From Okamejei kenojei (Eukaryota), in the NCBI GenBank assembly GCA_035221665.1, contig CM069155.1:10292001-10356000 (forward strand): a stretch of DNA of 64,000 bases. Direction: 5' to 3'. Under the pieces are notes generated by a model. That model was not told the DNA's origin. It did not search any database and saw nothing but the letters and a program-made list of their open reading frames with translations. The translations under genes were made by a program, and so were the position numbers. Below, piece after piece: positions 5,126 through 56,669 of this stretch (its first letter is position 1; every line of letters starts with the position of its first letter).

Positions 5126-5176
5126 CTCTATAATAAAGAAAAATCCCCAAAGCCCCAAAATGTTTTCGAATATATA

Positions 5177-5715: not shown

Positions 5716-5719
5716 ACTT

Positions 5720-7785: not shown

Positions 7786-8097
7786 GCACAGTAGCACAGC
7801 TGGTAGAGCTGACGTCTCATAGTGCCAGAGACCTAGGGTCGATCCTGACCTCGGGTGTTGTCTGTGTGGAGTTTGCACGTTCTCCCTGTGACTCCATGGA
7901 TTTCCTCCGGGTGCTCCGGTTTCCTCTCATCCCAAAGATGTGCAGGTTTCTAGGTAAGTTGGCTTCTACAAAATTGCTCATAATGTTTAGGGAGTGTATG
8001 TGAAAGTGGGATAACATAGAACAAGTGGGCAGGGGTGATCGATGGTCATCGTGGACTCGGTAGGGCCCATGCTGGATCTCTAAAATACACTAAACTG
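7786..8097 (+). mobile_element. HE1-like V-SINE
   Basis: tRNA head, tgtgtggagtttgcacgttctccc V core, decayed (CTAAA)n tail. Confidence 0.85.
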
Positions 8098-9106: not shown

Positions 9107-9159
9107 TAACCGTGACAATGTTAAATCTGAGAAGGAAGAACAGTATGATGTCATGTAAA

Positions 9160-12931: not shown

Positions 12932-13230
12932 TTGGCAAGGTGGCTCGGCGGTAGAGTTGCCAGAGACTCGGGTTCTATCCTGATACAGATGCTGTCTGAA
13001 TGGAGTTTGTACATTCTTCCCGTGACCGGCGTATGTTTTCTTTGTGTGCTCCGGTTTCTCCCACACTTCAAAGGCGTACAGGTTTGTAGGCTAATTTGCT
13101 TCGTTAAAATTGTAAATTGTTCCTGGTGAGAGCAGGATAGTGTCAATGTGCGGGGTTGGCTGGTCGGTGTGGACTGTGGACCGAAAGGCTGTTTCTGCAC
13201 TCTATCTCTAAACTAAACTATACCAAACTA
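12932..13230 (+). mobile_element. HE1-like V-SINE
   Basis: tRNA head, V core, ctaaactaaac tail. Confidence 0.85.
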
Positions 13231-16940: not shown

Positions 16941-17332
16941 GTCAGTTAGAATATGTAATCCTGACAATATGTTAGGAGTGTTGGCCTGCAAAATTTCTAC
17001 ATAATTAGGAAGCATTTTGATACACTGTTTGTTCAGTCCATTACAAGGAGATGACAGAATTCTGGACATGTGCACATGCAAACGTATCAGTCAAAAAGCA
17101 GATGCTACAAATCTGGAACCAAAACAATTCAGAAGTGGTCCCTTCATCAAAACTGGAACTGATTTTCTAGAGAAGGATCCACTCCCAAGATGTTAACTGA
17201 TCCTTTCTTGTCTAACTCACTCAGTGCTTCCGAAGTTTCTGACTTTGGTTCAAGTCTTCTACAATATCCATTATTTTGGGAAAGAAAACTTGCAACAACG
17301 TCAATTCTTTCCAATCAGTGCCAAAAATAATA

Positions 17333-17538
17333 TGTAACAGGGAACTGCAGATGCTGGTTTAAACCGAGGAGAGATACAAAAAGCTGGAGTAACTCAGTGG
17401 GTCAGACATCTCTGGAGAAAAGGAATAGGTGGTGTTTTGGGTCTGAAGAAGGGTCTCGACCCGAAACGTCACCTATTCCTTTTCTCCAGAGATGCTGTCT
17501 GACCCATTGAGTTATTCCTGCATCCTGTGTCTATCTTC
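17333..17538. mobile_element. Penelope-like inverted pLTR pair
   Basis: Antisense arm 17333-17443, sense arm 17443-17538; flanking repeat AAAAATAATATG / AAAAATAAAATG. Confidence 0.75.
17438..17475 (+). ncRNA. minimal type-I hammerhead ribozyme motif
   Basis: TGGGT-CTGAAGA-A-GGGT(CTCG)ACCC-GAAACGTC-ACCTA: stem I 5 bp, intact core, palindromic ACGT in place of stem III. Confidence 0.7.
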
Positions 17539-17820
17539 AAAAAATAAAATGATTACCTGTACTAATATTTTTGGTGAAGTTGAAATCAAGCAGATTTAAC
17601 AGGCGTCAGTCATTCTACTTTTAAGGATAAGGCCTGGTTAAGAGAAAAGACTACACCTACAATACGCAACAATATTTTTTCGCAAGTGAATCCGAAGCTG
17701 GATTATATTTGGAATAAACAGTATAATAAAGAAGGCTCTAATTATTTAAGAAGTACTTCCTTCTTATTCAAACAACGCTATTTATCTGTATTTTCGTGAA
17801 CTCAAGAAAGTGAACACATT

Positions 17821-17949
17821 TGTAGGAAGGAACTGCAGATGCTGGTTTACACCGAAAGACACCAAATTCTGGAGTAACTCAGCGGGACAGGCAGCATCTC
17901 TGGAGAAAAGGAATAGGTGCCGTTTCGTGTTGAGATCCTTCTTCAGACT
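17821..17949 (-). mobile_element. Penelope-like pLTR fragment with 3' tail
   Basis: tgtaggaaggaactgcagatgctgg...ccttcttcagac. Confidence 0.72.
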
Positions 17950-18717
17950 ACATGGTGTACATCATTAATTCTGCTTACATCATTAATTCTGTTTCTGCCT
18001 GCATACATGTGGCCAGAGTAGCTGACTGTTTCTATTTTTTTTTAATTTATGACTATCAGCATTCACACAATTTTATTTTTGATATTATAATTTTGTGGGT
18101 TACCTGCGGTACCTCAGATTTGAGAGAAAACTATGTTTGTTACACGTGAATGTGAATGCAAAGTTAGTGTCATAAATAATGCACTGTGGGTTCAGAACTG
18201 AACACAAACCTCAACAAAGGTTCACCATGTTCCTGTCACATAGAGAATCAATGACATTTGTTAGGTTCTCTATCATATTGTATATAAATTACCACTTAAC
18301 ATTTATTTCTGATGCAAGACCATTCTACAGATGATTCATTGCATTTAGAGATAATTAGTAATAACATACATTGACAATTTCAATGGTTTCTTTGCTCCTG
18401 GTATCTTTTCAATGCTAGTACTTTAGGTGCCATTCTTATTATGAAAATAATGCCGGCAAACATACAGAAAATGCAAAGTGCAAAATAACTTACACTCCTC
18501 AAACCGTTGACCTTCCAAAGAGATTGTGACCCAGAAATCATGACTTTGATTTTTGTTTAATGCAAAGCATTTGGGAATGAGTAGTGTTAGCATAGTAGTT
18601 AAGTTAAAGGATTATCCATCCTAACGCCTGTACTATTGATCCAGATGCAAGTGTTTGAATCCCACCAAGGCCTTGGGGAATTTATTAAATATATCTAAAT
18701 TAAAAACACAACCTTAG

Positions 18718-18960
18718 TAAACATAGAAATAACATAGAGAATAGCTGCAGGAGTAGGCCGTTCGGCCCATCAAGCAGTACCGCCATTCAATATGATCATG
18801 GTTGATCATTCTCCAGTTTAACTTCCATTTGGAATATTTTGGAGGACCAAGAAACCAAGAAACCAATCCAATATCAGTACCCCGTTCCTGCTTTCTCACC
18901 ATATCCCTTGATTCTATTAGCCCTAAGAGCTCCATCTAACTCTCTCTTGAATACATACTT
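18718..18960 (-). mobile_element. CR1-clade LINE 3' end
   Basis: aacataga tail, gcaggagtaggccgttcggcc, atgatcatggttgatc; same family as 25253-25407. Confidence 0.75.
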
Positions 18961-20177
18961 GAAAACTTTTAATTGTATGACTGACCTGGCCAGTGAAATT
19001 CCTCGTATGTTACAAAACATACTTGGCAAATAAAATCTGATTCTGATTCCGATTCCAAAACATAACTAGGAAAGTGCTAGATTGTTGAGCAAACCCATTA
19101 GGTTAATCAAGACACCTTCGGGGAGAGGAAAGCAACTGTTATTCCATCGACAAAACCATTTATTGAATGTTGCCCCCTTCATAAAGATAACAGATTAATG
19201 TCAAAACAGGACACCACTAAGGTAGGAGGTATATGAGGTATGGCTTGTAACAACGGTAAAAGTGAAACTTGCACACAAGCTCAAAAATATTTGTACAGCA
19301 GGGCATTTACAGAAACATTAACTTGTTTTTAAATCTTCTTTAAAACAACAAGGTGAAGAAGATAAATGAATTAACAATTTGTTTGCTAATAACATTTGTT
19401 ACTTGAATACTTTTGATGATGCCTTTGGTGTTTCTTTAGGTTGATTTATAATCTTCATAAGAAAGCCAGGTTCTGGTATTAATTTTGTTCTTTTTATTTA
19501 TATTTGTACTCTCCGTGTGTGAAGCTTTGGAAGAACGCCTTCTGTAAACCAGAAGCCAATCACATTATGTCACGAAGCATTCATGAAACATGATACTTAA
19601 AAGGAAGAACACACAAATTTCTAAAGACATAAAGTGAAAAGTATAAGGATTTGTTTGCATTCAGAGATTATGGTATTAACTGTGGTCACTTATAAGCATA
19701 TACCACTCAATGTGTGCATGAATTTTAATTTCTGCTCTATATTTTGATGCATTTACTATCTGTAGGAAAGTTCAAGGGAAATAGTACATGCAGGAATTTG
19801 GGAATTTAGGTATGCATATAATACATATGAAATTACAGAAGTCATTCATTCTGTGGCAATAACATGATGTATCTTCTTTAAAGAAGGAATGCTCGAAGAG
19901 GCAGATATTTAAAATTTACTTTTTGGACTGTTTCAATGAAAGATTCTATTTGACTTCATGAGCTGAGTTTCAAGTGATGTGATACTAATTAAACTTTTTC
20001 CCTTTTTTATTTAATCCTTATCATTCAAACATCTCTATTGTAAAATGCAATGGACCCTTTTAGTATTCCCAATAGCAGACCCATTAAAAAAAAATGCTTC
20101 ACCTTTCAAAGATTCTGGTGCCTATTACGGCAGAGTGCACACCCCATGACCGAAGCAAAAATAAGCCACTTGTGCTA

Positions 20178-20512
20178 ATTCTACGTGACACACTGGTCAA
20201 CCTAAGGAGTACCTTCAGCAACAGACTGGTTCCACCAAGGTGCTGGACAGAGCGCCACAGGAGATCCTTCTTCCCTGTGGCTATCAAACTTTACAAATCC
20301 TCCATCTTCTGTCATGGAGACTGAGACTGAGACTTATTGAACCCCCCCCCCCTCCTCCCACACCCCAAATATTTGCACAACCCCCAAGACTTTCAACTCG
20401 TCACTTTAATTTCATCAATTGTATTTTGTGTCTTGTGTATTTTGTGTTTTTATGAATGTTGGCGGATCAATATCCCTCCTGGGATAAATAAAGTTCTATC
20501 ATATAGTATCAT
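20178..20512 (+). mobile_element. Rex1/Babar LINE 3' end
   Basis: LRSTFSNRLVPPRCWTERHRRSFFPVAIKLY; terminal cctgggataaataaagtt plus short-repeat tail. Confidence 0.8.
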
Positions 20513-21407
20513 AATTCATATGACACGTGACACTTTTTTATTTTGAGGGTGACAGATCTTTGACAGGATAACATAAAATTATCATGGTGACGTAGAAGGA
20601 ATTATGTTGTTTAAATCTGGGCATGTATACTTAAGCTTCCCATTTTTCCCATATGTTGTTCACACTAATCCATGCTGGGGACTACTGTGATGGACATGTA
20701 TGTTGTAAATTTATATAAGTCCGCATTAAAAATTCCTGTTATTCCAATTGAATTTGAAAGTACAATGAAAAATAGGAACAAAGAAAATTCTTTACCTTTA
20801 TGTAATACATGTATAATTATATCTTGATAATAAATATAAACTTGCAAACTCTGGCTTGACAGGTAGAATAGTGCTTCATGTTTTCAATTTATCTTTAAAG
20901 GGATTGGGCATGCTGGTGCGCAATACTTAAATCCTACTTTCTATTTTTCTTGCTCTTACTCTTTGTTTGTTCATGCTTCTCCATGTGTTTTCTGCCTGTT
21001 ATTTCCACATTCCTGATCATCATTTTATTGTCTGTTTCTGCAAAACAAGGGATTTGATCCTTTGGAACAAGTATGAAATTATATGACTTTGATCTGGTGA
21101 AGAAGTCACAATGGCAGTGGTCACGTTTTACCGTGAGGTTCTTTTTGGAGCCAAAGCTTCGCATAAATCTAGAGGTGGTGCATTAAACCCAGTCTAAACC
21201 TGAGCTGTTTTCTGCAGGATTTACTGGAGGATCAAGTAAAACATCCCTGAAGCTCTTCTGTGTGAAACTAATGTCCTGCAGCATTAGCTGCTGGTCTATG
21301 TGTGTATATATCACTGCACCCAATACTTCAGTCCCGGGCATCTTTCGATCACTTGTCAGACCGCATGGTATTTTATCTGTTCGTTGCTTCTTACAGTATT
21401 CATTTGA

Positions 21408-21530
21408 AGGTCTGAAAAAGGTTCTTGACCCAAAACGTCACCTATTCCTTTTCTCCAGAGATGCTGTCTGAGTCCAGATTTTTGTGTCTCTCTTCGGTTT
21501 AAACCAGCATCTGCAGTTCCTTTCCCACAC
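21408..21530 (+). mobile_element. Penelope-like pLTR fragment with 3' tail
   Basis: ggtctgaaaaaggttcttgacccaaaacgtcacctattcc...gcatctgcagttcctttcccacac. Confidence 0.7.
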
Positions 21531-21654
21531 AGCATTAATTTCTGTTTCTACTTTCCATTTATCAGATGTGTTGAAATATCTTAATTGTTTCCCAAGAGCA
21601 CTAAATGTTGCCACCCATTTAAGAAGAATCCCTAGAGAACACTGATATGCAACC

Positions 21655-21842
21655 TTTTTCAGGTCGGGACCCTTGTTCTGTCTGATTGTAATGGGGGTGT
21701 ATACCACAATCAGTCTGAAGAAGAGCCCAATCCTAGACATCAGTTATTCATTTTCTCCAGAGATGCTGCCTGTCTGATTGAGTTAATCCAGCACTTTGTG
21801 TCTTTTATTTTGCAAACCAGCATCTGCAGTTGCTTGTGCCTA
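21655..21842 (+). mobile_element. Penelope-like pLTR fragment, older copy with short inverted arm
   Basis: ctgattgt...acaatcagtctgaagaag...gagatgctgcc...gcatctgcagtt. Confidence 0.6.
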
Positions 21843-24800
21843 CCAGATGATCACCATCCTTCTTCTTGTGTGCAGACTGGCAGCACAAAATTACTACTAC
21901 TGTGATTTCTTGATGGCAAAATAAATATTTTACTGTAAAAGGGAATATTGTCTGTCAAAAAAATAGTATTCAATTAATGTTTAAGGATCAAACAAAAAGG
22001 AAATTGATTTTTTTTTCTGAACTGAGAAAGTAATGATGTGCCGCTGGATTATATGAGCTAATACACATCATTAGAAAATAAGATTTGTTTTATTTGCCTT
22101 AGGAAAATAAATAAAATCAATCTTACATTGCATATTAGTTATTAGCTGAACTATGTTGAGAGATGGTAAGTTTTGCCTTAACTGCTCAGGACACCATCAT
22201 TTATCTTGTTTTGCTAGATTATATTACCTGGCTCGTAGTATTCATCATCTAACAGGGGCTCAAATGTTCAGAAGGTTGCCCTTGATTTTAAGGGGTTGGA
22301 AATTTCAACTTTGCTTCATATTCTGCAGCTTTGTAGCTGGAACAAAAATAGCATAATCAACTTGGGAAAGCATAACGTTACTTTAATGTACATTTCCTGT
22401 AATTATGATTTTCGTTTTTAATTATTCACATCAGCAAATAAATACGCAGGATTTCTCCCCTAAACGTCATTATTTAAAAAGTCACATTTTTTATTGTGAA
22501 CGGTGTGCTGGCAGTTCATCCCTGGTAAGTGACTTAAGATAGGGGGTGCAAATTACAAGTAGGCTGCATGTTGTAGAGTAAGAATGTAATGTTTATGTTT
22601 TATTTTGGAAACATCATGCTTGTGTATTTACTTAATCAAAAAGTTTTGATTAAACCAACTCTTATCCAGGCATGTGGTATCATGTGCTATTACTTCTGAT
22701 AAAAGAGTACTGTTCATGATTCCTTTATGAGGTTGGTGAATTGTTAAGTGGCTCTGGGCTTAAAGGTTATCATATCAAACATATATACACACCAACCTAT
22801 ATTTGAACTATCGACAGAGAGAGAAGTGTATGCATATAATTATGGATTTGACGTGTGTGTTCATTATTCTTGTAACTTATATAATAGTGAAAATGCATAT
22901 GCGCGGTCCCATTGATTGTACAGCCCCGAGTAGTCCGGTGATTTGTTACAACTGATATATTTGGAATGGCCACGAAATCTTAGGCTTGATGTCCAATTGT
23001 CCGGGTCGGATAGTTGCCTTTAAGTTCTACAATGTTGCTGAAAATAACCTGCCATATAAAAACGATCTACCAAAAAAGCGGTGTTATGAATGTATAAAAC
23101 ATATAGTGACAAGGGCCATAGACTTAGCCATGCGGGTTTGAACAGCATTATGCGGTGCCAAAGAGATGTTACCTCGGGAAAAATTCGAAAAGCAAAAAAA
23201 AAAATTCTTGTCACTGCCCTTGGAAAAGGAGGATTTATGGTCCGCTCGGCACATACTTGGAGAACTTGACTGAGAACGCACAGTCTATGTCTCAGCTAAA
23301 TTGGGTTACGGTATCTCATTAACAGTTTCGCATCGGTTACCAAAAGCCATGAAGGATAGGTCATGTTGCTTCTGGTATTTGCCCATTAGCAATGCTGGCA
23401 CCTGAAACTAGACAGATATGTGAAAATGACTATAAATGATTTGCAGACCAGGCGTTCTGCAGAAGCCCAAATTAATAAATACAGGTCGTGCCAGAGGAAG
23501 GAGGTGCAAGAAGCCGTGGTCGGTCACTTGGCAGGGTGCGTGGTGGGTTTGGAAGAATGGAGTAAGATAGATGCAGAGGGATTTAGTGATGAATTCTTAA
23601 ACGTGGAAACTCACGTGACTAAAACCAAGCCAGCCCTTCCAACGAAAGTGTAGTCCGAGCAAGGAGACATTATAGCTTGTGGGTTAGTGCACTAGTAAAG
23701 TTCATACACACTGGCAGGCAAGAGTCAGTAAAGTAAGGTGATTCATTCATGAAATATACACCGGCGCAAAGAGCCTTGTTTTGCTTCCCATTGATTCTGT
23801 ACAGCTGGTTATTTTCCACCGTGTACCTTTGAGCTCAGTCTTAACATTTATTTTTTTTGCCAAGATCGCCACACTTGTTCATGGGATTATCACTTTTAAC
23901 ACAATGTTAGATCAGCAGAATAAAAAGCAGAGTGTTGTTTTAAAACACCCGCATATCTGAACCTGCAAACGGGCTGGACACTTATTAAAGATGTGGAGCT
24001 TCTGATGACTATTCTGTTTATTACATACCTGGACTCGAACATGTTTGTTACCTTCGGTGCAATCTTGTGACTACCTCCATCCAGCCTTGGGGCCGGGCCG
24101 GGGCGGGGGAGGGGAGGGGGTTGGTTCAGTTTGAATGACCTTTGTGAGAGTTTATTGATGACACTTAAATCAGCTCGAAAACGTCTGCATTTTTTAACTG
24201 TCAGGGCCGGGTACAGATATGGTTGCGATCAAAGGCTACGCTACGGCGTGTAAATTTATAGCAGTCCAGGCGAACAATACTAAACATTATCCCGAGGAAA
24301 TATATGTCCCAGAAAGAAACGACGCGTCGGAAGCTATTTCTGTTTGAAGAATATTATTTTTTTTTAATCGAATTACAACCTTCCCTCCCCCCTATAAGAA
24401 AATGGGTGGAAAAAGCTTTCAGCGTTAACGAAGAATGGTATTAGACGCAAATTAAAATTTCCGCCTGCGCCAGGACCAGTTTCACGAATCGGAAGAAACG
24501 TCTTTCAATTTAATTATCAGAAATCGGGGACGTGAATCCTTACGGTAGATTAAAGAGGCTTGGATGTTGCCTGATAAATTCGGTGGAAGGTGGTTTATGG
24601 GCAGAAGCGATCCGCTCGACTGTCCAAGTCGCTCTCTGCTGCGGTGCAAAGTACCATTTGCATGAGCAGGGGTTATCAATTAAATGTGCAGAACCGCATT
24701 TCATTTTCTACTGTAGCCCGATACTCGATGTGACTTGTTCATCGTCAGAGGGCAAAACTTTTGTTTTGTTTGTTTTAACTACATTATCAGCCCAGCTATC

Positions 24801-25252
24801 AGCGTTGGTTTTAAAATACTCGTAGATGAGTGTAAAATAAAATCTCTTCTAATCATCGACGCGGCAAGTCCAATTTATCTCAGCGCCCCGGTTGAAGTGA
24901 TTATTTTGCAAATAGAAAGTGTGTTTTTTTGTGCGTTTTATTCCTGATTCTGGGTCCAGGGATTGCTGGAAGAGCAAACAGCTTGCAGATATCGGAAGCA
25001 GAGTGCGGGATATATAATTTCAAATCGCACACGATGAATCTAGCAAGCCAATAACCGGACTTAGCAAGTTGCAGAAGGTCGTCCATTGGGTAATAGGTTC
25101 AGAAGAATAATGCCTTTAACAACCCATTAATGTCCCTTCACTCATGTAAACTGCGACTCAACTGAAATAATTACAATCATTCTCTCTTTCAGATACCGGC
25201 CGACTTGCTGTAAAATTAAGACTGCGTTCCATCCCATTCATTTAATTCCACT

Positions 25253-25407
25253 TAAGGATAGCTCTTAAAAATAGCGGAGTCAGGGGATATGGGGAGAAGG
25301 CAGGAACGGGGTACAGATTGGGGATGATCTGCCATGATCACATCGAATGGCGGTGCTGGCTCGAAGGGCCGAATGGCCTCCTCCTGCACCTATTGTCTAT
25401 TGTCTAT
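25253..25407 (+). mobile_element. CR1-clade LINE 3' end, young
   Basis: gggatatggggagaaggcagg...gaagggccgaatggcctcctcctgcacctattgtctattgtctat. Confidence 0.8.
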
Positions 25408-27694
25408 AAAGACTTGGTCCTTAACCTCCTCGGTACTTTGGCGCGTTGGCTTATGTACCATGAGCGATGCGTGTACGAGGTTTGAAATGAAAGTAATCGC
25501 ATCTTAATTTTGCGCAAGATTCGCCATATCTTTCCCCACCCCACAATTAGTGCGGGGATCGTGGAAACAAAGTATTGCCAGGGTTGGGGTTTTTTTTAAT
25601 TGGACTTATTTCCAATCCATCGACAGATTATTGAAATTAAAACATATATAATTTGGATAATATTTTGCAGGCGTTGTTACCATTTACCAGTGAGAAGATG
25701 GATTGTGATTGATGTGGAAAAAGAAAAGAAAATACACCACATCCGTGTAAATTCGAGTTGCTGTTTGATATTTGTTATATTTGTTAGTAAAGCAACCCCA
25801 TCTAGCTTGGCATAAACCATATCCCGCTGTGCGTGTGATAAACATTCTCTCCACACTACTCCGCTGGCAGGGGTTGACAAAATAAGATTGAGAAGAATTC
25901 GTACTTTGATAGAGACCTGACATGCAAAACTACTGAGGCGCAAGTGTGTGGGGTCGCCGGGGCAAGATCTCCTCCACCCCCCCCCCCCCCCCCCCCCCCC
26001 CCCGCCATCCTCTGCCGGGTGCTTGAGGTATTGACAGCCGAGGCCTGGCCTATGTTGAAAATGTACCAGGATGGCAGAAGGCCGAGAAAAATTGCGAGTT
26101 CTAGAGAAAACATTGGCTTGTTCAACCCCGACCAGTTCCAACATTTTTTTCCAAACATTAAACAAACCTTCTAATTTCCCTTTTGTCCTTGTGGGATGTC
26201 AAAGATCCTCTCTGCCTTCTGGGGTGATGGTAAAAGGTTGATGCACACTCGGCTGAAGCAGAACAGGAGAGTTGTCTGTGGGCAAGGGAGTGCTCTGGCC
26301 AATGTTCAGCACTCGACGAACACGGCTCAGCATGTGTCACATTGCCGTCAGTGGGAGCTTGTGTGTAAAATGGCTAACATGCTCGTGTATCGCAAACACC
26401 TAAAGCCGCTGAGTTGAACACGGAGCGCTTTGGAATGAAAAAAACCAGCAAAGCTCGCTTCACAATGGCTGTCTACAACAATATTGTTCATGGTACTACC
26501 AACATACCCCAAACATATCATCCATGCTCACATTTGACATTGTTCCTTCCATCCTAACAGTACCCAAAGTGAACACCACCGTGGCTATTTACAATTGTCC
26601 ACCTTCCTCCGTGTGCCAATATTCAAGGGAACCGTGGCCTGACTGTAAGCAAGAAAGAGCGGGACTGCTGCGCTTGCACATCAGAGTCGCTTCTGCGGCT
26701 AATTACATGATCTTAATGTACGAAAACACGATCGAACCATTGCAATTCTTAATTGTACCCGCTAGATGCTGCTCCGAGACCCTGTCTCTTCAAGGGGAGG
26801 ACAGGGCGGCATTACTCACATGCAGCCAATCGAAGTGTCCATCAAAGTGTCGAACGGAGAGCGTGAAAACACAACCGGAACGAGTTTAAGGCAGAGCAGA
26901 ATATGTTATGGCAGACAAAAACATTACAAATACCAAGAGGGCGAAAGAATTTTACAGGAAATACCTGCGATTATAGTTACAACTAAAACATAGAAACTTA
27001 TTTATATTATATAACTGAAGAAGTCTGGTATTTAGAAGTAGGTGGTGTTAAGTGCGTTGCTGGCACCGGGAAAACATTAAAGCTGTATACACATGTAATG
27101 ATGGGGGCAAGGCAGCGTCCCTCTGGAAAATAAGTCTCGAAACTACTGAAATGTATTTACCACAACAGTACATATGGGATAGCTGAAATATAGAGGGGGG
27201 TGGGGGTATTCATTGTATTAAATTGATCATACAATTAACTAAATAGCTTCCATATATCCAGATACCTTAAAACTAACTTCGATCTGTATTCCCAACTAGT
27301 GTGTGTGCTAATGGCCACAGCAATGCTCTTGAGAAACTGTTTTCTTTATAACGCAATGCAGGAGTGTACTGCGCAATATTGAATTATTTATGATTTCGAA
27401 TGTTAAGATACATTTGCAAACGTATGTAATACCTTGAGACCGTTCTTTCAAATCTTTCTGATTGGATGTAATGATCAACCGACCTTATTGTTGTAAATAC
27501 ATCCATTCGGGATATAACTAATTACCTTTGGTGCCAAAGGGAACTACTTCAATATTGGTTACCAATAACAGCACCTGGCAATTTACTTAAGTATTCAAGT
27601 TCTTGCGTTTTCTACTCTATCATCTTGTTTATAAATTCCATTAAACCAGCGACCACCGGAATGAATACATCCGTATATATGAATATATAAAGAA

Positions 27695-28028
27695 NNNNNN
27701 NNNNNNNNNNNNNNNNNNNNNNNNNNNNNNNNNNNNNNNNNNNNNNNNNNNNNNNNNNNNNNNNNNNNNNNNNNNNNNNNNNNNNNNNNNNNNNNNNNNN
27801 NNNNNNNNNNNNNNNNNNNNNNNNNNNNNNNNNNNNNNNNNNNNNNNNNNNNNNNNNNNNNNNNNNNNNNNNNNNNNNNNNNNNNNNNNNNNNNNNNNNN
27901 NNNNNNNNNNNNNNNNNNNNNNNNNNNNNNNNNNNNNNNNNNNNNNNNNNNNNNNNNNNNNNNNNNNNNNNNNNNNNNNNNNNNNNNNNNNNNNNNNNNN
28001 NNNNNNNNNNNNNNNNNNNNNNNNNNNN
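27695..28028. other. assembly gap
   Basis: N run. Confidence 1.
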
Positions 28029-28227
28029 ATAAAATGCTGGAGTAACTCAGCAGGACAGGCAGCATCTCTGGAGTGAAGGAATGAGCGACGTTTCGGGTCG
28101 AGACCCTTCTTCAGACTGAAGGTCTGACTGAGTTATTCTTCAGGATGAAGAAGGGTCTCGACCCGAAACGTCGCCCATTCCTTCTCTCCAGAGATGCTGT
28201 CTGTCCCGCTGAGTTACTCCAGCATTT
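28029..28227. mobile_element. Penelope-like inverted pLTR pair
   Basis: Arms 28029-28114 and 28145-28227 are near-perfect reverse complements. Confidence 0.78.
28084..28117 (-). ncRNA. minimal type-I hammerhead ribozyme motif
   Basis: Minus strand AGT-CTGAAGA-A-GGGTCTCGACCC-GAAACGTC-GCT. Confidence 0.65.
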
Positions 28228-28250
28228 ATATATATATATATATATATATA

Positions 28251-28489
28251 TTCTTCAAACTTCCGACATAGCACATTAATCGTGTATTTGTCGTGTCCAT
28301 AGCTCATAAACCCCTATACTAATCGTATATTCCATGCGGCAGGTGGCTTATATTTACCGCATCAATTACACTACTGGCATACAAAGGAGTAGGATACAAC
28401 ATTCCGCATAGGATGGTGGAAGGAGAATTTGGAATGAGAGCTGTGTTTAAAAATATGGCAAGAGAATATAAAAGTTTCGTGTTGACAAT

Positions 28490-28547
<58 letters not shown>

Positions 28548-28631
28548 GGTGTAAATCAACATCTGCAGTTCCTTCCTACACACACACAGACACACACGCG
28601 CGCATAGTATATATATATATACTGTGCGCGC

Positions 28632-28668
<37 letters not shown>

Positions 28669-28925
28669 GCATATAGTTTCATTGTCAACACAAAACTTTA
28701 ATATTCTCTCGCCAAATTTTCAAACCTAGCTCTCATTCCAAATTCACTTTCCACCACCCTATGCAGTATTTTGAATCCTACTCCTTTGTATCATGTGCTT
28801 CCAACAATGTAATTGATGCGGTAAATATAAGTCACCTGCCGCACGGAAACAAGATCAACATAAGGGGTTCATGAGCTATGAACCCGACAAATGCACGATT
28901 AATGTGCGGTCCGAAGTTTGATGAA
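28251..28925. repeat. ~240-bp diverged inverted repeat (28251-28489 / 28681-28925) with (TA)n tracts and an inner palindrome
   Basis: Arms align as reverse complements, e.g. tatatttaccgcatcaattaca / tgtaattgatgcggtaaatata; inner hairpin 28588-28641. Confidence 0.9.
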
Positions 28926-30228
28926 TATATGATTTTTCCAAAATAAATACATGGAAATAGCGTTGACAAACAAACGGTGAAGAATTAATGTCACTGGCGG
29001 GTGCAGAATCTATCATTTATTCCTTCATTGCATGTAAAATACTGGAAACGATTCCTCCCAACATTTCTGAGAAAATATCGGTGGATTTGATTCATGTTTG
29101 AGACAGGCTAGTTTAAGATGTTCAATCACACCACAGACTAACAGCTTCAGAAGTATTCTGAGGTTGACAGTTTTCCCCGGGATATATAGAAAGCGATGAG
29201 CTTATCCAGAGGCAGAGCGCAGGACAAACTGGCGAACAGCAATTTCCAGGTGCACCTTCTAAAACTTGCCGTTTCTAGTCCCTTATTTAGAATTTGTGTC
29301 TCATGTCAGTTCTAAAGGTTTAAAACATCCACTCTACCATATTGATTTTGGGGACTTGGCTTTTGATTGAGATTGTATCGATGATCGGTAGCGACCAAAC
29401 CTGCAATATTCGTCAAATGTCAAGTTCAAAGATGCGTGCGGGGAAATGTGCTTTACTTTCTTGCTCCTTTGAACAACGACTTTCAGTGAATGATGTGCCT
29501 CGCCGAGAGATAAGAAAAAACACCAGATGAAAGTATTTGTTATATACTTCACACGACATTTACTTTTATGCTTCAAGTAATACAGAAGGGAAAGAGTGAG
29601 ACGTTGGCGTTTTAAACCAAGATTCCTATACACGCGGGTAAACATATGAACCGATTTCAACTTCTGACGCCAATGTTATTCCAGTAAAAAATGTGAACTT
29701 TTGACCCCCAACCTCCCACGCGTACACCTGAAATATTTCATTTTTGTTTCGCGTTCAGTGATCCTTTACTTGTTTGCAGAGGTAAACATTATTGCAGAGT
29801 TTACTTCAGGCACGCTTAGGGGGCAAGTTTGTACCGCTGAGTACATGAACTTCGGTTGCGTTTAGAGATCATCAGGGCGGATGACTTCTGAGGTTGGCCT
29901 GTGTGTTATCCCGAGGACACCTTTCCGGTAAATATCCCTCTGCTTTGCTTCTGGCGAAACAACTAACACACACACTTAAAATTTCGTTCGTAGTTACGGA
30001 CAAATGAATGCCACGTCAACGCATGTTTCACATACTACACATCATGCCAATGGAATCCCTTTCCTTAACAAAACTCCACTTTTCCTTCCTCCTTCCTCCA
30101 AGTCAAGATTTTTACATTAATTCATATTACTGGCAGCGGTAAATCACCGACGGGCCAATTTTTCTAATGCACACTAACACAGGGGGACATTATACTGTCA
30201 CTAGGTTTGCAAAACAAAAAGAAGAAAA

Positions 30229-30348
30229 CCGAAGAAGGGTCTCGACCCAAAATGTCACCCATTCCTTCACTCCAGAGATGCTGCCTGTCCCGCTGAGTTA
30301 CTCCAGCTTTTTGTGTCTATTTTCGGTTCGAACCAGTACCTGCAGTTC
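30229..30348 (+). mobile_element. Penelope-like pLTR fragment
   Basis: ccgaagaagggtctcgacccaaaatgtcacccattcc...ctgcagttc. Confidence 0.72.
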
Positions 30349-32417
30349 GAAAACAATGATAGCTTCATGAGACAGTATGCTCATAGCATAGCAATATGAC
30401 CACGACTCACACAGAACGATATTCACAGTGTATTATTATTTTAAGGTTGGTACATGGGATTTTAGTTACAATAATCTGAAATGTTCTCCAAAGTGGAAAG
30501 GCTAAGGGAAGATAACACATGTGGGAAGATCCAACTCGGAATTGCTTCCAAAGGACTTGCTTGTACTCTCTATGTTGTAGAGACCTTATCAGGCATAACA
30601 CAATGAACTATTACAACAAAAACATGTTTGGGCCATTGACGACTATTGCACTGGGCCATGCACCATCCTTTCTCAAAGCGATGCTGTCGAGTCCGGTGGC
30701 TGTAGGCAAGACGGTTGTTTGCGGGGCAGACAGTCAAACACGCATCAGTCATATTGCCAACGCATGACAGACACAGGGGAGGCGATCGTGGCAGTGAAGA
30801 ACGCAGGAGGCGAGAAGGGGGGTATTGTATGTCTCCACCAGTTGCTGTTGTCGACCACAACTCATTCGCTATGCGAATGTGTGACCTCTGTTTCACATCC
30901 CGGGCGTGGACGATCAAACGAGGTTGATGCGACCCGCGTACACGTTTCCCCAAACTTTCCCAGTGGTATCCTTCCTCTTGAGCCCAGGACTGCTTGGGGC
31001 AGTGGTCGGGTTAATAACAACAGACCGTTGCTCTGGGCGGATGACAGCCAACTTTCTGCAAAACTGATTTTAGTCTGCAAGCGTTTAAAAGTTAAAGGGT
31101 GATAAGGGATGCAACGATGTTGTGATGTAAGTCTGAAAAAAAAAGCCTGCACGTCGCTATGATTATTAGCCGAAACTGCATTCGCAACAAATTGTGTATC
31201 AAAGGCGCAACTAGAAACGACTGGGACTCTAACATCCCTGATCAAGGTCTTACTAGTGAGTGAATGGCATATGTCATTTAACGGTCGGCTCCTGTTTACA
31301 AACTAGATGAGAACCAATGAATCAATGAAATCGGGACCCAGTAAACCATTAGTGCAAACCCAGAGGGTCCACATTTTTATGCGACATCGCCAGTTGTTAG
31401 AGAAACAAATCATAAAATCGTGACTAGGAGATCAATTTGCAGACACGATTATAAAGCCTTTATTTCGCTATTATGGCAATGTAATCTACAACTGGTTCAG
31501 GATATCTGTGATGTAATGTGATTCTGTCTTGCACAGGTCGTCCTCCAAATACTTGCATGAAAAGACAACGAATGCCCAGTGCAAAACCCATGGCAAGCAC
31601 GTTTCCATCTTTGAACCGTGCTAATGCAATAATAATTTCTAATTCATCAGTTCTTGAATTACAGCAACGACGCCATCTAATAGCTTCAACAAAATTCGTG
31701 GCGTTATGAAGTTTAACCGACCGTGGGTAAAAAGGCAACCCTTTAATAAAAATCTAGTTTTCATTCTTATGGAATGAAATTTTATACCGAGGTGAGGAAT
31801 ATATGAATGTGATGTTTCAGTGGCCCAAGACTTCTGCCATAGAAATCTATCGAGGGATCGCATAAATTGGACACTGGAGCCAGTTTGCCAGTTAATAATT
31901 GATTGGACAGTATATTAGTTCGGAGCCAGGAACTGCTGCCCGACGACGTCTTCACTGCGTCTAAACTGGTCAACCCTCTCTCTTCCTATGTGTCTCTGTT
32001 TATCCCTCTGTCTGACACCCTGTCTCCCAGTCTGCCCCTCTCTCTTTCGCTCTCCGTCTTATGAGAGCACGGGGGAAGGGACGCCGGCGGGAGGGTCCCA
32101 AAGGTCAGCCAAATTATGTTTTCTCCGCTGAGACCATTAAATCTGTGTATGGTTTAATAATGATTTGAATGGTTAGTGGAACCCTTAAGTGCCAGTTCCA
32201 ACATCCGATGACTTGAACGACGTGCATTAAAATATCACAGAATTACATGTACAAACCAGACAGCTCAGAGGGTACTTTATGTTTCTGGTACATAAAACAT
32301 ATTCGGCAAGCTTCTGCGATAGCTTCTCGTTTGACACGAAACCTTTTAAAGCTTGATATAATTGAACCCCCCGCCCCCCAAATTAACTACATATTAAGGA
32401 CGAAGTACTGTTTCTTT

Positions 32418-32600
32418 GATATACACAAAATGCTGGAGTAACTCGGCGGTTCAGGCAATATCTCTGGAGAAAAGGAATATGTGACATTTTCAGACCCGAA
32501 ATGTCACCTATTCTTTTTCTTCCGAGATGCCGCCTGACCCGTTGAGTTACGCTGTCGTGTTCTATCTTCATTGTAAACCAGCATCTGCAGTTCCTCCCTG
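32418..32600. mobile_element. Penelope-like inverted pLTR pair
   Basis: Antisense arm joined to sense arm at gacatttt|cagacccgaaatgtc; degenerate flanking repeat gtactgtttctttga / gtactaattccttga. Confidence 0.72.
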
Positions 32601-34388
32601 TACTAATTCCTTGAGTTGAGTAGGGGTTTGAAACCTTTAATTCCATCCAATTTGAACGTGTAATATATATCCCAACGAGTCATACTTTACATGCCATTTT
32701 CTCAACAACTTATTTCAGCGAGATTCCTGGCTGCTGAGTGGAAGAAATTGGGCCTGAAATTGAAATATGTTAAAGTAAACATGGCGAGTAATGGGATAGC
32801 AGCGCGTCGCAAAAGCCAAATGCGAATTAGGATGGGGTCACTGCCAACCAACGGAGTGCAGGGCACCAAGGACGGAAACTCACCCGTCAAAGCTATGTAT
32901 CTTATATCAACTCGAAATATGATGTTAAGTGTAGAATCCGAATGGCGGTTCTGGTTAGTTTCAATTGGAAGCAATGTTTATGGGGATTTCACTCAAAACA
33001 GACCCCAGAGTTATCCCTTCACGTTCCAGGGCTACCTGCTAGTATCCTCTAAGCTGCAGGGCACCCACCCACGTGCGTTGAAGGGACGGGCCGCCAAATA
33101 GAGAGAAGCCGCACAGAATCTGGTATAGATTTCTCTCGTAGCCAAGATTCACATCAATTCAAATTTGATGATCTCCCTTCCTGCTGGACTGTTTCGCCTT
33201 CAGTAACTCGTTTCACATTATCAGATTCCCTTTCCCTCTACCATCAACTATGTCCAGTTGCATTCTCTATATATATATATCTTATTTTAAAAAGGGTTTA
33301 GTCCCTGTTCTAATTATCATCGATTAACTAGTGTATCGACACCGTGAGGTTTGCTGTAGTCACATGCATAGCTTCAAAGTTACCGGTCCGCCCTACTTTA
33401 GGCGTCCAAATAGGGCGCCTAAAGTAGGGCGAACTACTGAATGCGCCTTTGTAACTTTGAACTGCGCGTCCAAGACACCGATCCTCATGCCTCCACTGTC
33501 AATTTCAAAATCAGGAGGTTAAACCCTGATAAATACAAGAAACAAAACAAATACAAGAAACAAAGTCGAAAAATAAAACGTGTCTCACAATCTGCCCCCG
33601 GAGTGAGTTTTTTTTAAACCATTTTAGTGAAAACTTAGAGTGTGGCTGTTTTAGGATTTAAAAAAGCCACGAAACATATGTGTAAAGATTTAATAATGCC
33701 ATGATTTTGAAAATGTTTACTCCCCGCCAAGCATAAAACATCAAACGTTCGCTCTAACAATGTCCACTCACAATAACGTGAAGGATTTATTCACTTTCTT
33801 GTGCTTCTTTGCAGATTTGAGTTATTTATGCACAAAAATAAAACCGTGGCCCTCGACGTTGGTCTTCAAATAAGGGCGTTGAATAGATTGTACTAGTTAA
33901 TAAGTTTTGGATTAAACGGCGGGATTTTAATTTGTTCTGTTGAAATTGCCTTATCATGTTCCACTCTGTCGAGACTCGTGTGCTTGCTGGTCCCTCCCAC
34001 ATATTCGCCAACACAAAAGTCACTTTATCTGGTGGGATGGTGTGAAGCGTGCGTGTTGCGTTTCTCTTATCTTCGCGACGTGTTTCTCTTCAGTTCCCCG
34101 CAGTGGGGGAGGGGAATGGGTGGAGTGGGGTGGCAAGGTGTGGAGGTGCCTTGCAGCAGACTGGAAGGGCGGAGTTCGCTACGACTAGACAGCAGCACAA
34201 ATGTAGCAACATATCCGCAGTTGTCTGTTTTGTGTGACCAATATTACAAGCATTTGAAATGACCATCCCCAAATAAAGATTTGTTACTGAATAAAGAACC
34301 CCCCGGTATTTCTTTGTACACAAATGCCCAGAACTTCCCCCCAGGATACTTAACATTAAAAAAAAAACCCTACAGTAAGCATTAGCGG

Positions 34389-34683
34389 CGAAAATAGACA
34401 CAAAACGCTGGAGTAACTCAGCGGGACAGACAGCATCTCTGGAAGGGTGCAATGAGCGACGTTTCGGGTCAAGACCCTTCTTCAGACTGAGAGTCAGGGG
34501 AAAGAACCGAGAGATATAGAGAGAGATATAGACGAAACGAATTAATGATATGCAAATAAAGTAACGATGTGACCCGAAACGTCACCCATTCCTTCTCTCC
34601 AGAGATGCTGCCTGTCCCGCTGAGTTACTCCAGCGTTTTGTGTCTCTCTATAAACCAGCATCTGTGGTTCCTTCCTACACTCC
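34389..34683. mobile_element. Penelope-like inverted pLTR pair with 17-bp target-site duplication
   Basis: TAAGCATTAGCGGCGAA 34376-34392 / TAAGCATTAGCGACGAA 34684-34700. Confidence 0.82.
34455..34488 (-). ncRNA. minimal type-I hammerhead ribozyme motif
   Basis: Minus strand AGT-CTGAAGA-A-GGGTCTTGACCC-GAAACGTC-GCT. Confidence 0.65.
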
Positions 34684-35182
34684 TAAGCATTAGCGACGAA
34701 TGAGGATAACGCTCTGATGTTACTTGGAACATCAAACACTTAAGCAAATAAGTTGCATTTGACGTTAAAAATATAGCAGTTGATTTGCATGTGTTTCAAT
34801 TTATTAACATGAGTTAGAACTGAGAGGTGCAAGAAATGCAGATTCCTTTCGGATTTAACTATGTAATTTCAACAAAGACCAAAACGAGGTCTGTATTCCC
34901 GATTGGAACGTGATATTCTTAATTATTTAGCGGAAAATCCACCCATCGCTTTTTGATAGCTATACCATTCTAAAAGTTAAAAAATTTGGAATAATTTTAC
35001 AAATAAGACATGTCCTTCTAATTGCGCTGGAGATGGAGGCATGGGGCAGGGAAGACAGTGGGGTACACAAAATATTGCACTTGCAAATATATAAAACTGA
35101 CGGCTGGTCACTTATATCATTGATATTCTCAAGGAGCACAGCAACTAGCTGCATATCAGTGAAGAAGCCATGAATGTGACTA

Positions 35183-35527
35183 NNNNNNNNNNNNNNNNNN
35201 NNNNNNNNNNNNNNNNNNNNNNNNNNNNNNNNNNNNNNNNNNNNNNNNNNNNNNNNNNNNNNNNNNNNNNNNNNNNNNNNNNNNNNNNNNNNNNNNNNNN
35301 NNNNNNNNNNNNNNNNNNNNNNNNNNNNNNNNNNNNNNNNNNNNNNNNNNNNNNNNNNNNNNNNNNNNNNNNNNNNNNNNNNNNNNNNNNNNNNNNNNNN
35401 NNNNNNNNNNNNNNNNNNNNNNNNNNNNNNNNNNNNNNNNNNNNNNNNNNNNNNNNNNNNNNNNNNNNNNNNNNNNNNNNNNNNNNNNNNNNNNNNNNNN
35501 NNNNNNNNNNNNNNNNNNNNNNNNNNN
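35183..35527. other. assembly gap
   Basis: N run. Confidence 1.
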
Positions 35528-35561
35528 TGTATGTGTGTGTGTGCGTGTGTTTGCGTGTGCG

Positions 35562-35613
<52 letters not shown>
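35528..35613. repeat. (TG)n microsatellite
   Basis: Direct reading. Confidence 0.95.
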
Positions 35614-35617
<4 letters not shown>

Positions 35618-38600
35618 AGATCTTGATTGCGGGAGTGATACAATTACATCCATTAATGCCAGAGGAGGTTTACCGGACTGCAACTTTAGTGTTTCTCTTT
35701 ATAACTCCTTTTAATGCAATTTCTGCAGAACTAAAAACATGTTAAAAGTGAACGTTTTGCTGTCAAAATGGTACTAAGAAGTTAATATCAATAAATGAAC
35801 TCTGCGGTTGATCAGTAGGTCGAAACGTGTTCATCTTTTTGAAATCAAAGCAACACCACAACAAGGATCTGGGTTTCTTTAGATCAGTTAATAAAGTGGC
35901 AATTTAGTAATGGCTTATTTCTACTTTTTAGGAATCTATTATCAACACTTCGCTTAAAATTCCACAAGCTTGAAAGTTGCGAATACTTGGTCGATTTTGC
36001 CAAGGTTTGTCCACATTACATATTTATGCCTTTAATGTGGCTTGGTCACGACATAGTGCGCAATACAATCTAAGCTCTGCCACTGATATTTGCCACATCC
36101 AATCTTGGCATTGGAGTATTCTCTATTATTATTTTCAAAAGCTGGCTTAGTAGCACATTCAACAGTTATGGAAACATTGGTAACTGTTCCATCGATTTGC
36201 AATATGCTGAAAACACTATTTTCTCCATTGTAACAGCATTAATATTTCAACCCAAAGCTAAATAATAACTGGAGAAGATTGATTTTTTTTTCTCTATTGG
36301 AGAGAAACAAATTAGAAATAAAACCGTCGAAATTCCCGATCAAAATATCTATTAATTATAGATTACGTTTCCTCTGGTTTTCTCGCGATAAACTTTACCG
36401 CAGTTTTTGTGGGCATGTTTGTTACAAAAATATATGTGGCTGGTCAGTTTGTTTATAGCAGTCGCCTCTTTTCCGCTCGCCCCCATTCACACATACACAC
36501 GCATATATATATATATACAATTTATGCAAGCGGCGTGATTTATAAACCTTCCATTCGTTTCTCTGTCCACAGAACCTCTAAAGGTAATTTGTTTTAAGTT
36601 GAATTCATCAATAACACATTGTAGTCTGATTTTTATTAATTAATCTATAACATAAAAATAAATTATAAATTAAGCCTATTTTCATGAACAAAGTAAAATA
36701 CGCGTTTGTTTTTTTTTAAACTGAGCTATCAGTCGTTAAAAGCTGAATCACGTGTATTTACTGGTTTACCATCAGCCGGTAGATTGCTGGTTGTTCTGTT
36801 TAAGCGGCCTTTAATTTAGAGATAAAACAGTGAAGTCGTGTGAGTATAAATTTTCATTTGTATTAAATATATAGGTGGATCAGCAAAGGACATTACCAGA
36901 AAAATAGACCAGACTTTACTAGGATTACAGGAACGATATCTTTATCGCTGCAAAATTCCAAAGCGAATAGCTTTCTTTGGTGAAAGTGGTGAGCAGAGAG
37001 TTTGGCCGGAATGGGATCGGCCGAAGGTAAGACTTGGAAATGGGTTTCGGGGAACACATTTCGCAAACGATCAGATATTTACGAGGACATATCATTTATT
37101 GAAAAATAGCTTGATAATAAATCATTTGGCGTGTTCTCGTGGAAAAGCAAGCTGACTTCGAATTTGAGTGCCTTGGTAAATATTTGAAGGGAACGTTTCA
37201 AAAGGTGTAAAGCAGGTAAATAAATATAAAGCGTTTTATGAGATTATGGCTACTCGCGCTGGTCAAAAGAAAAGTCCAGAATGTTTGGTGAAGACTTATG
37301 GTGTAATGTCGGGTGTTGTTCTCTTGGAATTCTTAAACGACGGTGACAGTGGCACATTAGTTTCTCTAGCCTCTCATGCGCTCACTGATCCGGAACGGTC
37401 TTGTCTCGCCTAATGGAATCATTAGGCTACCTGTGTGTGAATACGGTGGCTGAGTGGCCTGGCTCCACTTTGACCAATATGATGAATGTTTTCAGCAGCC
37501 TTACGGCATGGTAATAGCCCTTGCGAAATGGGAATGTGTGCACTGCGCACAACAGATGCGACCCTTTGGATCTGCAGTTGAACAGGATTCCTTTGGCGTC
37601 TGGTTAATATCTGTCACTGAACTGTCCAATGATCTGAGCTTTGGGGTGATTGTGTACGAGTTATTTGTTTGGGGTAGCTTTAACATAGATCACTATTGAT
37701 GCTGTCGAAACAAACGCCCTCTTGCTGGTAATCGTGATTTAGCTACATCCCTTAGCATTCACGAACTATGGCAAAATAACACAATTGTGGCACGCATTTA
37801 AACATAAATATTAGTTTCTTTCGTTGCTCGAGTTTCTGGTGATAAAACGATACGCGTGTCATTAGGTTGTTTTGATCATCTCGTCTATTTAAACTTAAAA
37901 AGTAAGGCTGATGAGTCCCAGACAGACTGGCACCAGTGGTCATCTCTGTAGGCAATAGTGCTGTCAATTCGAGCCATGGGACAGGTGTAAATCTAGCTGA
38001 CATTCCACATTTCCACCCTGGGTCCTTACCTGAAGCTAATCTCATTTATTACTGGTAGCGAAACGACTACATTTTTAACACGTTAATCACGAGACTCACC
38101 CCGAATTGTGATAATAAAGGCGCTGCCTATATGCGAAAGGCAGCGTTGCTGAATGCGGCCCGGCTGTACCTAGGACCAGTTACCTGTGCAACCGATCACC
38201 CGCTTTAACCTGGAATGACACATTAACAACCACTAGTAAAACTCATTGTTTTCCTTCTTGCTAATATAGCGTTGGATAGATTTTTGTTAGACATGGAATT
38301 CATAAGAGTGTGGTTTTTTTTTTTTGCAGAATTAAGAGGAAATAACATTTCGAGGAATTCAAGTACTCAAGTACAGAATCCACATGTTAACTTTTTTTTA
38401 TTTGGGGTTTATGCGCCTTTTCAGGCCGCCATCCAAAATGATTTCCTTTTTTTTCATGTGTACACAATTTCCCAAGTAGAAAAACTGAAGTGTTTAATGT
38501 TTTCTGATGCCTTTTATGTGATTATTTTGCTTGAATGAAAAAAAAGTGGCTTTAAAAGTAATGATTTTCCAAGATAAATCATTGTTTTATTGTTGTTATT

Positions 38601-38946
38601 TTTAACTTTAATTTCTGTCTTCTTTTGGTTTTTGACATCTGAGATAGTTCAGTATTGGACCAGTTAGTTATACAAAGCAACGCTCATAATAATGTCCCGT
38701 GGTAAAGCCAGTTTAACGTTCTGTCGTTAAGACAACGTTTATTATATAAAGTTATATGTCTCTAACACTTATCACACTCGTTATTAGATTCTCAACTATC
38801 ATTGTTATCGTATGTGTCGACTTAATTGTTAAGTAATCAGATATTTTAAACGTAAGATTACTGCGGACTAATAGTTGCATTTTACTAACTTCTAAATCCT
38901 ATGCATATTCAATTAAGCGGCTGTGCATGCAAGACTGGTGTCCATT

Positions 38947-39045
38947 AGTCTGAAGAAGGGTCTCGACCCGAAACGTCACCCATTCCTTCTATCCAGTTAT
39001 GTTGCCTGTCCTGCTGAGTTACTCCAGCATTTTTTCTATCTTCCT
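38947..39045 (+). mobile_element. Penelope-like pLTR fragment with intact hammerhead core (38950-38977)
   Basis: agtCTGAAGAAGGGTCTCGACCCGAAACGTCacccattcc...gagttactccagcatttt. Confidence 0.75.
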
Positions 39046-47731: not shown

Positions 47732-48599
47732 CAAAACAAAAACCGGGATACAAATAAAACGACGTTAGATCGTTGGCTACAACCGCGGAGGATGGTGTTG
47801 GTCAGAGCGAGCTATTCGTCAGGGTTATACTCACAGATCAGGGAGGCGATATTTTGGGGGGGTTTTAAGCGAAAAGTGATACGCGGCGGTAGTTACAACT
47901 CGACGTCAGCGAGCTGGCGCCGAGCGCCCTTAAACATGTGCGTCCAAAATGCAATGTTACAAGAGCTAATCACTTTAGATGTTCCGCTCCTATCTCCGTG
48001 CGTTTAGCCGATGGGATTGCTTAGCAGTTACAAATCTTTTTGCAGCAGCACTCCGATAGAGCGAAAGAGAGAGAGAGAGAGAGAGTGAGAGGGTGGGGGG
48101 GGGGGGGGGGGGGAGAGAGGAGAGAGCCCTTGGTCTTTTAGCAAGTGAGCCCATTAGGCGCCATGTCCTGATAATTAAATCACCTCGTTAAATGAGGCTA
48201 TTCGTTGTTGTTTGAAAGCGTGGCCAATAAATAAATAAAATCTAAGCACTGCGGCCTTGCTTGCTTTTGTGAAAACGCACTAATCGCTCTCTGCCGCAGA
48301 GGCCCGGGGAAGAGGGCAAAGCAGCACAAAATGAATATATATATATATTACCAAAAAAAAAAACCCCTAATATTGAATATAAATAAAATGGTAATGGCCC
48401 AAGCTGGCGTTTGTAGGCGGCAGATTGTTGAGGAGGGAGCAGTGATGTTTCGGAAGCGAAAGCACGTAACGTAAGAGCAGGGATGGGGCAAGTGGGGCCG
48501 GTTGACCCGCTGATTTACTCCAGCTTTTTGGAGTCCGTCTCCGAGCCGGGCTTGCCTGCGAACAGAGATGATTTCTTGTCGATTTCCTGGTACTCGGTG

Positions 48600-49095: not shown

Positions 49096-56669
<7,574 letters not shown>

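Follow-up and report, generated by a model that had tools for sequence, protein, structure and literature searches.

A dispersed hammerhead-bearing repeat of the skate Okamejei kenojei is probably the 3′ end of a Penelope-like retroelement

A short dispersed repeat of Okamejei kenojei carries a minimal type-I hammerhead ribozyme motif and is, very probably, the 3′ end, a piece of the pseudo-long terminal repeat (pseudo-LTR), of an endonuclease-bearing (EN+) Penelope-like retroelement (PLE) of skates and rays, the hammerhead of these dispersed copies being now a passenger. We analysed 64,000 nucleotides of this genome (GenBank assembly GCA_035221665.1, contig CM069155.1, positions 10,292,001 to 10,356,000, forward strand), hereafter the window, which also contains the gene tbx3. 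A first-pass annotation had proposed a high-copy chondrichthyan Penelope-like remnant with such a ribozyme, and this view is supported by a tail, inverted pairs and target-site duplications. Three of four structural features of EN+ PLEs were found, namely a tail on one end, 5′ truncation together with an inverted copy, and target-site duplications of variable length. Taken with an adjacent endonuclease fragment, the tail, pairs and duplications make the Penelope-like reading stronger.

Judged by its sequence, the motif is a minimal type-I hammerhead. Pattern and descriptor searches both recovered the four intact cores of the first-pass annotation, at 17443-17470(+), 28087-28114(-), 34458-34485(-) and 38950-38977(+), the one at 34458 departing from the others by a single change in loop II. 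The core at 17443-17470(+), intact and buried in a hairpin, reads CUGAAGA, an extra A, a 4-bp stem II (GGGU/ACCC) with a 4-nt loop, GAAA, the palindrome ACGU and the triplet GUC. The boxes CUGANGA and GAAA, the NUH triplet, the nucleotide added after A9 and the G10.1-C11.1 pair of minimal hammerheads are thus all present, and ACGU, the 15.1-16.1 stretch replacing helix III, is found in all four intact cores. Native stem I has 2-3 bp, in keeping with a helix I of at least 2 bp, and its third pair is retained in 6 of 14 arms. The core pattern, with up to three mismatches, matched eight times in the window versus 0 in 100 shuffles. The type-I hammerhead descriptor search that had been proposed, here modelled on the Cervera and de la Pena consensus and run on the 64-kb window, returned five sites, every one within the repeat family, as compared with four sites in 150 simulated windows (0.027 per window). 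The fifth site is the arm at 1475, with a 3-bp stem II and a 1-bp stem I. Rfam returned no hammerhead family at gathering level over the whole 64 kb, and only chance matches, with no hammerhead family, at E<=10 around two cores. The exact 28-nt core had no match in bacterial and archaeal genomes, and the consensus fold of the arm alignment was a 3-bp hairpin only.

Self-BLAST of the window and BLAST of one locus recovered all 13 loci of the first-pass annotation, holding 18 arms, and a 28-nt scrap of the family at 48503-48530 beyond these. The density, one locus per 4.9 kb or about 18 arms per 64 kb, agrees with the earlier figure of one per 4-5 kb. With a self-BLAST depth of up to 16, compared with mostly 1-3 for a short interspersed element (SINE) that we take to be tRNA-headed, the family is the deepest repeat in the window.

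The anatomy of the copies is that of a PLE end. The unit begins just 5′ of the first hammerhead box and has two alternative 3′ ends, at about 100 nt or, with a further tail of ~34 nt, at about 135 nt. The tail is present in nine arms, absent from eight and unreadable in one that enters an assembly gap. Five of the 13 loci are head-to-head pairs and eight are single arms. Only one arm bears the tail in each of the four pairs that are readable at both ends. Target-site duplications were scored at 12 of the 13 loci, with the assembly-gap locus omitted and boundaries set by eye. Duplications of 7-16 bp, with a score of at least 7, were present at 7/12 loci, as compared with 9/132 mismatched flank pairs and 5% of random pairs (0/20000 permutations as high). 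All four readable pairs are enclosed by one duplication each, hence each pair is a single insertion. The first box is retained in 14 arms, of which 12 start 0-5 nt upstream of it and two reach 85 to at least 105 nt upstream. Three other arms, all members of pairs, start in loop II, and one further arm most plausibly carries an internal deletion. A 9-nt palindrome, TCAG-T-CTGA, that overlaps the first box contains the main start point, and the pairs at 17443 and 32491 share an identical junction via a 3-nt microhomology with stem II. None of the 18 arms starts at the cleavage site.

We then looked for a parent protein. The first-pass annotation had stated that no reverse transcriptase (RT) or GIY-YIG open reading frame (ORF) lies in the window. 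This holds for GIY-YIG, with no match in any of the 324 N-free stop-to-stop ORFs of at least 60 aa, and not for RT, of which remnants belonging to an unrelated element are present. Using the repeat's open frame as query, we obtained one match among longer proteins and 11 among cluster representatives. Ten of the 11 matching records are accidental frames across repeat copies, without a Pfam domain; a bacterial hydrolase (P0011) was dropped as a chance match, and we do not take the open frame through the unit, short and lacking an ATG, to be coding. Inverted arms also occur in 5 of these 10 outside records, whose arms mostly start at the palindrome before the first box. In two of them, P0006 and P0007, the sense arm seems, at the protein level only, to start near the cleavage site, which could be due to a lost palindrome centre or to copying from cleaved RNA. 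Downstream of the tail in record P0005 comes a stretch whose +2 frame fits 13 of the 14 positions of the Neptune/Naiad endonuclease-end motif, taken from a published alignment (PMC8557442). This score was reached by 1/1500 shuffles, and the nine other records scored 9-10. The search for an RT plus GIY-YIG partner gave one frame-shifted endonuclease end beside a tail and no full parent ORF. The element probably belongs to the Neptune clade, as suggested by this one record.

These features can be assembled into a tentative scheme. The parent's GIY-YIG endonuclease would nick the target, and its RT would begin copying element RNA at either of two internal positions ~34 nt apart, yielding the short or the tailed end; such internal initiation we infer by analogy with the PLE literature. 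Reverse transcription would usually stop 0-5 nt upstream of the first box, at the 9-nt palindrome that overlaps it. In ~40% of events, fold-back or template switching at a palindrome would place a second, inverted copy head-to-head with the first, both inside one target-site duplication. In the parent, by analogy with known elements, the hammerhead is probably used as a dimer: the ACGU palindromes of two pseudo-LTR hammerheads carried by one tandem transcript would base-pair, with cleavage following GUC, a reaction that is probably slow and likely protein-assisted. In the dispersed copies, the hammerhead would be a passenger undergoing neutral decay, and we do not expect any cutting of host RNAs.

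Several observations weigh against the Penelope-like reading. No Penelope-like ORF was found in the window, the best motif score across six frames being 6/9. The endonuclease link is a single protein record, the motif was fixed after the residue sets of the shifted frame had been seen, and the catalytic Asn position is not matched in it. Moreover, the P0005 fragment lies downstream of the tail, so what it documents is adjacency rather than an ORF continuing into the ribozyme. Open-frame searches of the protein sets did not find a full parent, and the C-terminal part of P0005, used as query, matched only itself. At 5/12 loci, there was no clear target-site duplication, and partner arms were nearest neighbours in only 3/10 comparisons, one pair ranking 11 and 16. 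Covariation in stems I and II did not exceed shuffles (408/500 as high, among 14 related arms in which stem II is 88.9% paired). Finally, core conservation is weak. Non-CpG differences were fewer in the core than downstream (10/154 versus 96/726, p=0.02), and after removal of nine shared-variant columns, the contrast fell to 7/140 versus 52/601 (p=0.17), which leans towards constraint on the source elements only.

A short non-autonomous master would account for the sharp 5′ boundary just as well. Most copies might come from a dedicated short unit, PLE-driven, SINE-like and starting at the palindrome, rather than from truncation of the parent, a possibility that we consider real, if clearly less probable than its converse. 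A single 7-nt bin takes in the starts of 12 of the 18 arms (P about 1e-11 if breakpoints were uniform; starts read by eye), outside records mostly share that start, and the ends of PLEs can act in trans (PMC3846280). Yet two arms hold 85 to at least 105 nt of common upstream sequence, starts are ragged (0-5 nt, with three in loop II), the unit has no tRNA head (a tRNA scan of the window returned 0), and a strong RT stop would yield the same pattern.

Spreading by circular RNA as a non-LTR retrozyme is very improbable. Such retrozymes are described as derived from Penelope-like ends, with a mean unit of 363 bp in the one chondrichthyan sampled, and resemble our repeat in being type-I hammerhead-bearing, non-coding and PLE-related (bioRxiv 10.64898/2026.07.22.740005). 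They are defined as head-to-tail arrays with a motif per unit. No such array was seen here (0/25 tandem-repeat rows, in the window only, though arrays could exist elsewhere in the genome), which argues that the repeat is not a retrozyme; every doublet is head-to-head, the canonical 6-bp helix I is absent, and the tails and duplications indicate PLE-type integration. The "retrozyme-like" label of the first-pass annotation was therefore not retained.

One structural detail also had to be corrected. The 5-bp stem I (UGGGU/ACCUA) that had been read at 17438-17475 is not native. Its UGGGU strand is contributed by the terminus of the inverted arm, where it is antisense to stem II, and matches the native upstream sequence of the two long arms at just 2 nt. 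The locus 17335-17539 is predicted to fold as one long hairpin (-124.1 kcal/mol, z -14.8) with both catalytic boxes paired. Three of the four intact cores sit in such inverted-repeat hairpins, and the fourth, at 38950, has a stem I of 2 bp. Modelled in a 120-nt context, the three paired cores would need 25-55 kcal/mol over the ensemble to adopt the hammerhead fold, as compared with 7-9 kcal/mol for 38950. For the shortest fragments, free cofolding beats a swapped-strand dimer by 12-15 kcal/mol. These energies are nearest-neighbour only, ignore tertiary contacts and protein, and come with no active control. The nearest same-strand intact cores are 6.4 and 21.5 kb apart. In published assays, minimal hammerhead monomers showed no activity in vitro and dimers weak activity (PMC4209133), and 8/9 Xenopus dimers were uncleaved (bioRxiv 10.64898/2026.07.22.740005). 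Most copies are also predicted to form an "anti-ribozyme" hairpin, in which the first box pairs with the run of pyrimidines downstream of GUC; it was no stronger than in shuffles of these 13 nt (fractions 0.06-0.79). We regard it as compositional and claim no switch.

These results bear on the suggestion that intact copies cut tbx3 enhancer RNAs or long non-coding RNAs (lncRNAs). The downstream gene is tbx3, as had been proposed. Its coding exons span 49096-56669(+), its best named protein matches are from sawfish (95%), skate (94%) and stingray (93%), and the TBX3 T-box was the best structure match. The four intact cores lie 10.1-31.7 kb upstream of its ATG at 49096, close to the 10-30 kb first given. 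That these copies were kept because they cleave such RNAs is nevertheless highly unlikely. In its favour are the position of the cores and a core difference rate about half that of the flank before correction. However, all 11 catalytic positions are intact in 6/14 arms, as compared with 5.05 expected from neutral decay (assuming a threefold CpG rate), so there is no excess of intact cores. The fold energies and published assays given above also stand against it. No full arm occurs between 39045 and 61249, that is, over 22 kb around tbx3 (gap P=0.05), and self-BLAST found no other repeat from 39045 to 59921 (~21 kb), as expected for a constrained developmental locus. With buried cores, no excess of intact ones and no full arm near the gene, regulation of tbx3 by repeat copies is unsupported, and the repeat gives no evidence on tbx3 control.

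The idea that the hammerhead is a chance resemblance and the repeat a palindromic miniature inverted-repeat transposable element, or the end of an ordinary SINE or long interspersed element (LINE), draws on the lack of covariation and of an Rfam match and on long inverted repeats at five loci, and is very improbable in view of the descriptor's specificity (5 versus 0.027), the single arms at 8/13 loci, duplications ranging from 7 to 16 bp, the optional tail and the absence of a poly(A) or microsatellite tail common to the arms.

The copies themselves are laid out as follows. At 17335-17442(-), an inverted arm with tail starts in loop II, its end supplying the apparent stem I strand 17438-17442, and is joined to a sense arm with a short 3′ end and no tail at 17441-17538(+). 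A 12-bp duplication flanks the pair, with its left copy at 17323-17334 and its right copy at 17540-17551 (one mismatch). The head-to-head pair at 28030-28227 combines the intact core 28087-28114(-) with a C3-mutated core at 28145(+). Its left end enters the assembly gap, and the tail of the 28145(+) arm is found at 28545-28583(+), split off by a (TA)n-flanked insertion. The pair at 32418-32597 has no whole core, a tail on the right arm only and a degenerate 15-bp duplication. In that at 34390-34681, set within a 16-bp duplication (34376-34391/34684-34699), the left arm retains ~85 nt of native upstream sequence and the intact core 34458-34485(-), and the right arm begins in loop II and bears the tail. 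The pair at 63000-63208 belongs to a diverged subfamily, with broken cores, a tail on the left arm only and a 14-bp duplication. Only one solo arm, 38947-39044(+), combines a fully intact core (38950-38977) with a 4-bp stem II; it has a 2-bp stem I and a short end. Three further solo arms have short ends: 1475-1571(+), with a degenerate stem II and within a tRNA-headed SINE; 3095-3290(-), whose core is broken and which keeps native upstream sequence, rich in pyrimidines, over at least 105 nt; and 61249-61346(+), with a broken core and a 12-bp duplication. Solo arms with tails and broken cores lie at 17822-17949(-), where the cleavage triplet and stem II are affected, 21409-21527(+), with a 13-bp duplication, 21710-21845(+), and 30229-30349(+), with a 7-bp duplication.

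Two further observations concern the unit. In folding models, the tail can pair with the body ~20 nt past the cleavage site in an 8-bp helix that encloses the short 3′ end (for example in 34570-34681(+) and about 17818-17949(-)), with a z of -2.99 in one copy and of -1.04 and -0.08 in two others. The initiation stem-loop of the anole element, considered below, may be similar to this modelled helix. The native upstream sequence (3186-3290(-), 34486-34570(-)) is pyrimidine-rich, with AG one base before the first box, and looks like a splice acceptor. In Drosophila Penelope, an intron ends at helix I (PMC4209133).

Other elements are present in the window. The second repeat, at 1294-1723, 3395-3657, 7791-7965 and 12933-13230, is tRNA-headed-SINE-like with a CTAAA-type tail, presumably of the elasmobranch HE1 type. 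The 1475 arm sits inside a copy of it, so that insertion is younger than the SINE copy. A 5′-truncated, frameshifted LINE remnant, unrelated to the hammerhead repeat, occupies 9149-10521(+), with Pfam matches to RVT_1 (9149-9376) and zf-RVT (9910-10518), and is one we assume to be Tx1/L1-like. Broken Tc1/Sleeping-Beauty-like transposase pieces (HTH_SB, DDE_3) lie on both strands at 4532-6853. At 28226-28930, the ~250-bp (TA)n-flanked element that interrupts the 28145 arm has a second, inverted copy at about 28670-28930, and a short palindrome (28586-28641) separates the two; the left arm of the 28030 pair also becomes TA just before the assembly gap. The segment 62477-62869(-) had no Pfam match and is presumably akin to the protein end of an RTE-type LINE. 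A 30-bp minisatellite forms two blocks (581-738 and 976-1041), and a 40-bp array lies at 11-152.

Minimal hammerheads in Penelope ends were already known, from cnidarians to reptiles, and the batoid family adds to them. Among the titles listed on Penelope or hammerhead motifs in skates, sharks, elasmobranchs and cartilaginous fish, no description of it was found; Repbase and Dfam may list it. Its many short copies constitute a dataset. A genome-wide map of their start points would bear on whether hammerhead cleavage ever defines the template of PLE transposition, a point left open in PMC11167929 and PMC8557442, and would also show how inverted arms arise at palindromes. If the density in the window holds genome-wide, skates and rays would have ~10^5 or more minimal hammerheads sharing one palindrome. 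It is a long shot that transcripts across a solo intact copy such as 38950 pair in trans with abundant family RNA, with the element's protein opening the competing fold, and are cut. If true, host RNAs, those upstream of tbx3 among them, would be subject to a transposon-switched cleavage layer acting genome-wide.

We finally compared the repeat with known systems. Among the 56 minimal hammerheads of Penelope-like pseudo-LTRs in the published table of PMC4209133, none is from cartilaginous fish, and the nearest rows are Acropora digitifera Neptune (closest) and Nematostella (2). Our motif resembles these listed motifs in its boxes, the nucleotide after A9, the G-C closing pair, the 4-bp stem II with 4-nt loop, a CG palindrome for stem III, a short helix I and mostly dispersed single copies. 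Its helix I of 2-3 bp lies at the short end of the published range, a length shared by 29/56 listed motifs in our count, and its 4-bp stem II differs from the 7 bp of the fish Poseidon/Xena type. As to integration, PMC8557442 gives the EN+ Penelope-like signature as 5′ truncation, an inverted truncated 5′ copy and a tail of 30-40 bp, often at one end only. PMC3846280 describes, in Adineta elements, 8-10 bp duplications, a head-to-head arrangement and palindromes at the inverted junction. Truncation, inverted copy, one-ended tail, variable duplication and junction palindrome are all shared with these EN+ Neptune-type elements, as is, in one record, an endonuclease-end motif beside the tail. In contrast, the copies here are only 100-135 nt long with a very sharp 5′ boundary, and an RT plus GIY-YIG ORF and a partial tandem were not seen in the window. 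In green anole Poseidon PAc (PMC11167929), the tail lies between two internal reverse-transcription start sites, cleavage by the ribozyme requires protein, and transposition uses uncleaved RNA as its substrate. Unlike PAc, our repeat probably belongs to another clade, has another hammerhead shape and shows no evident ATG-led ORF start in stem II. Like PAc, it has two 3′ ends that are separated by the length of the tail and lie 3′ of a pseudo-LTR hammerhead, and just as PAc copies stem from uncleaved RNA, no arm here starts at the cleavage site.

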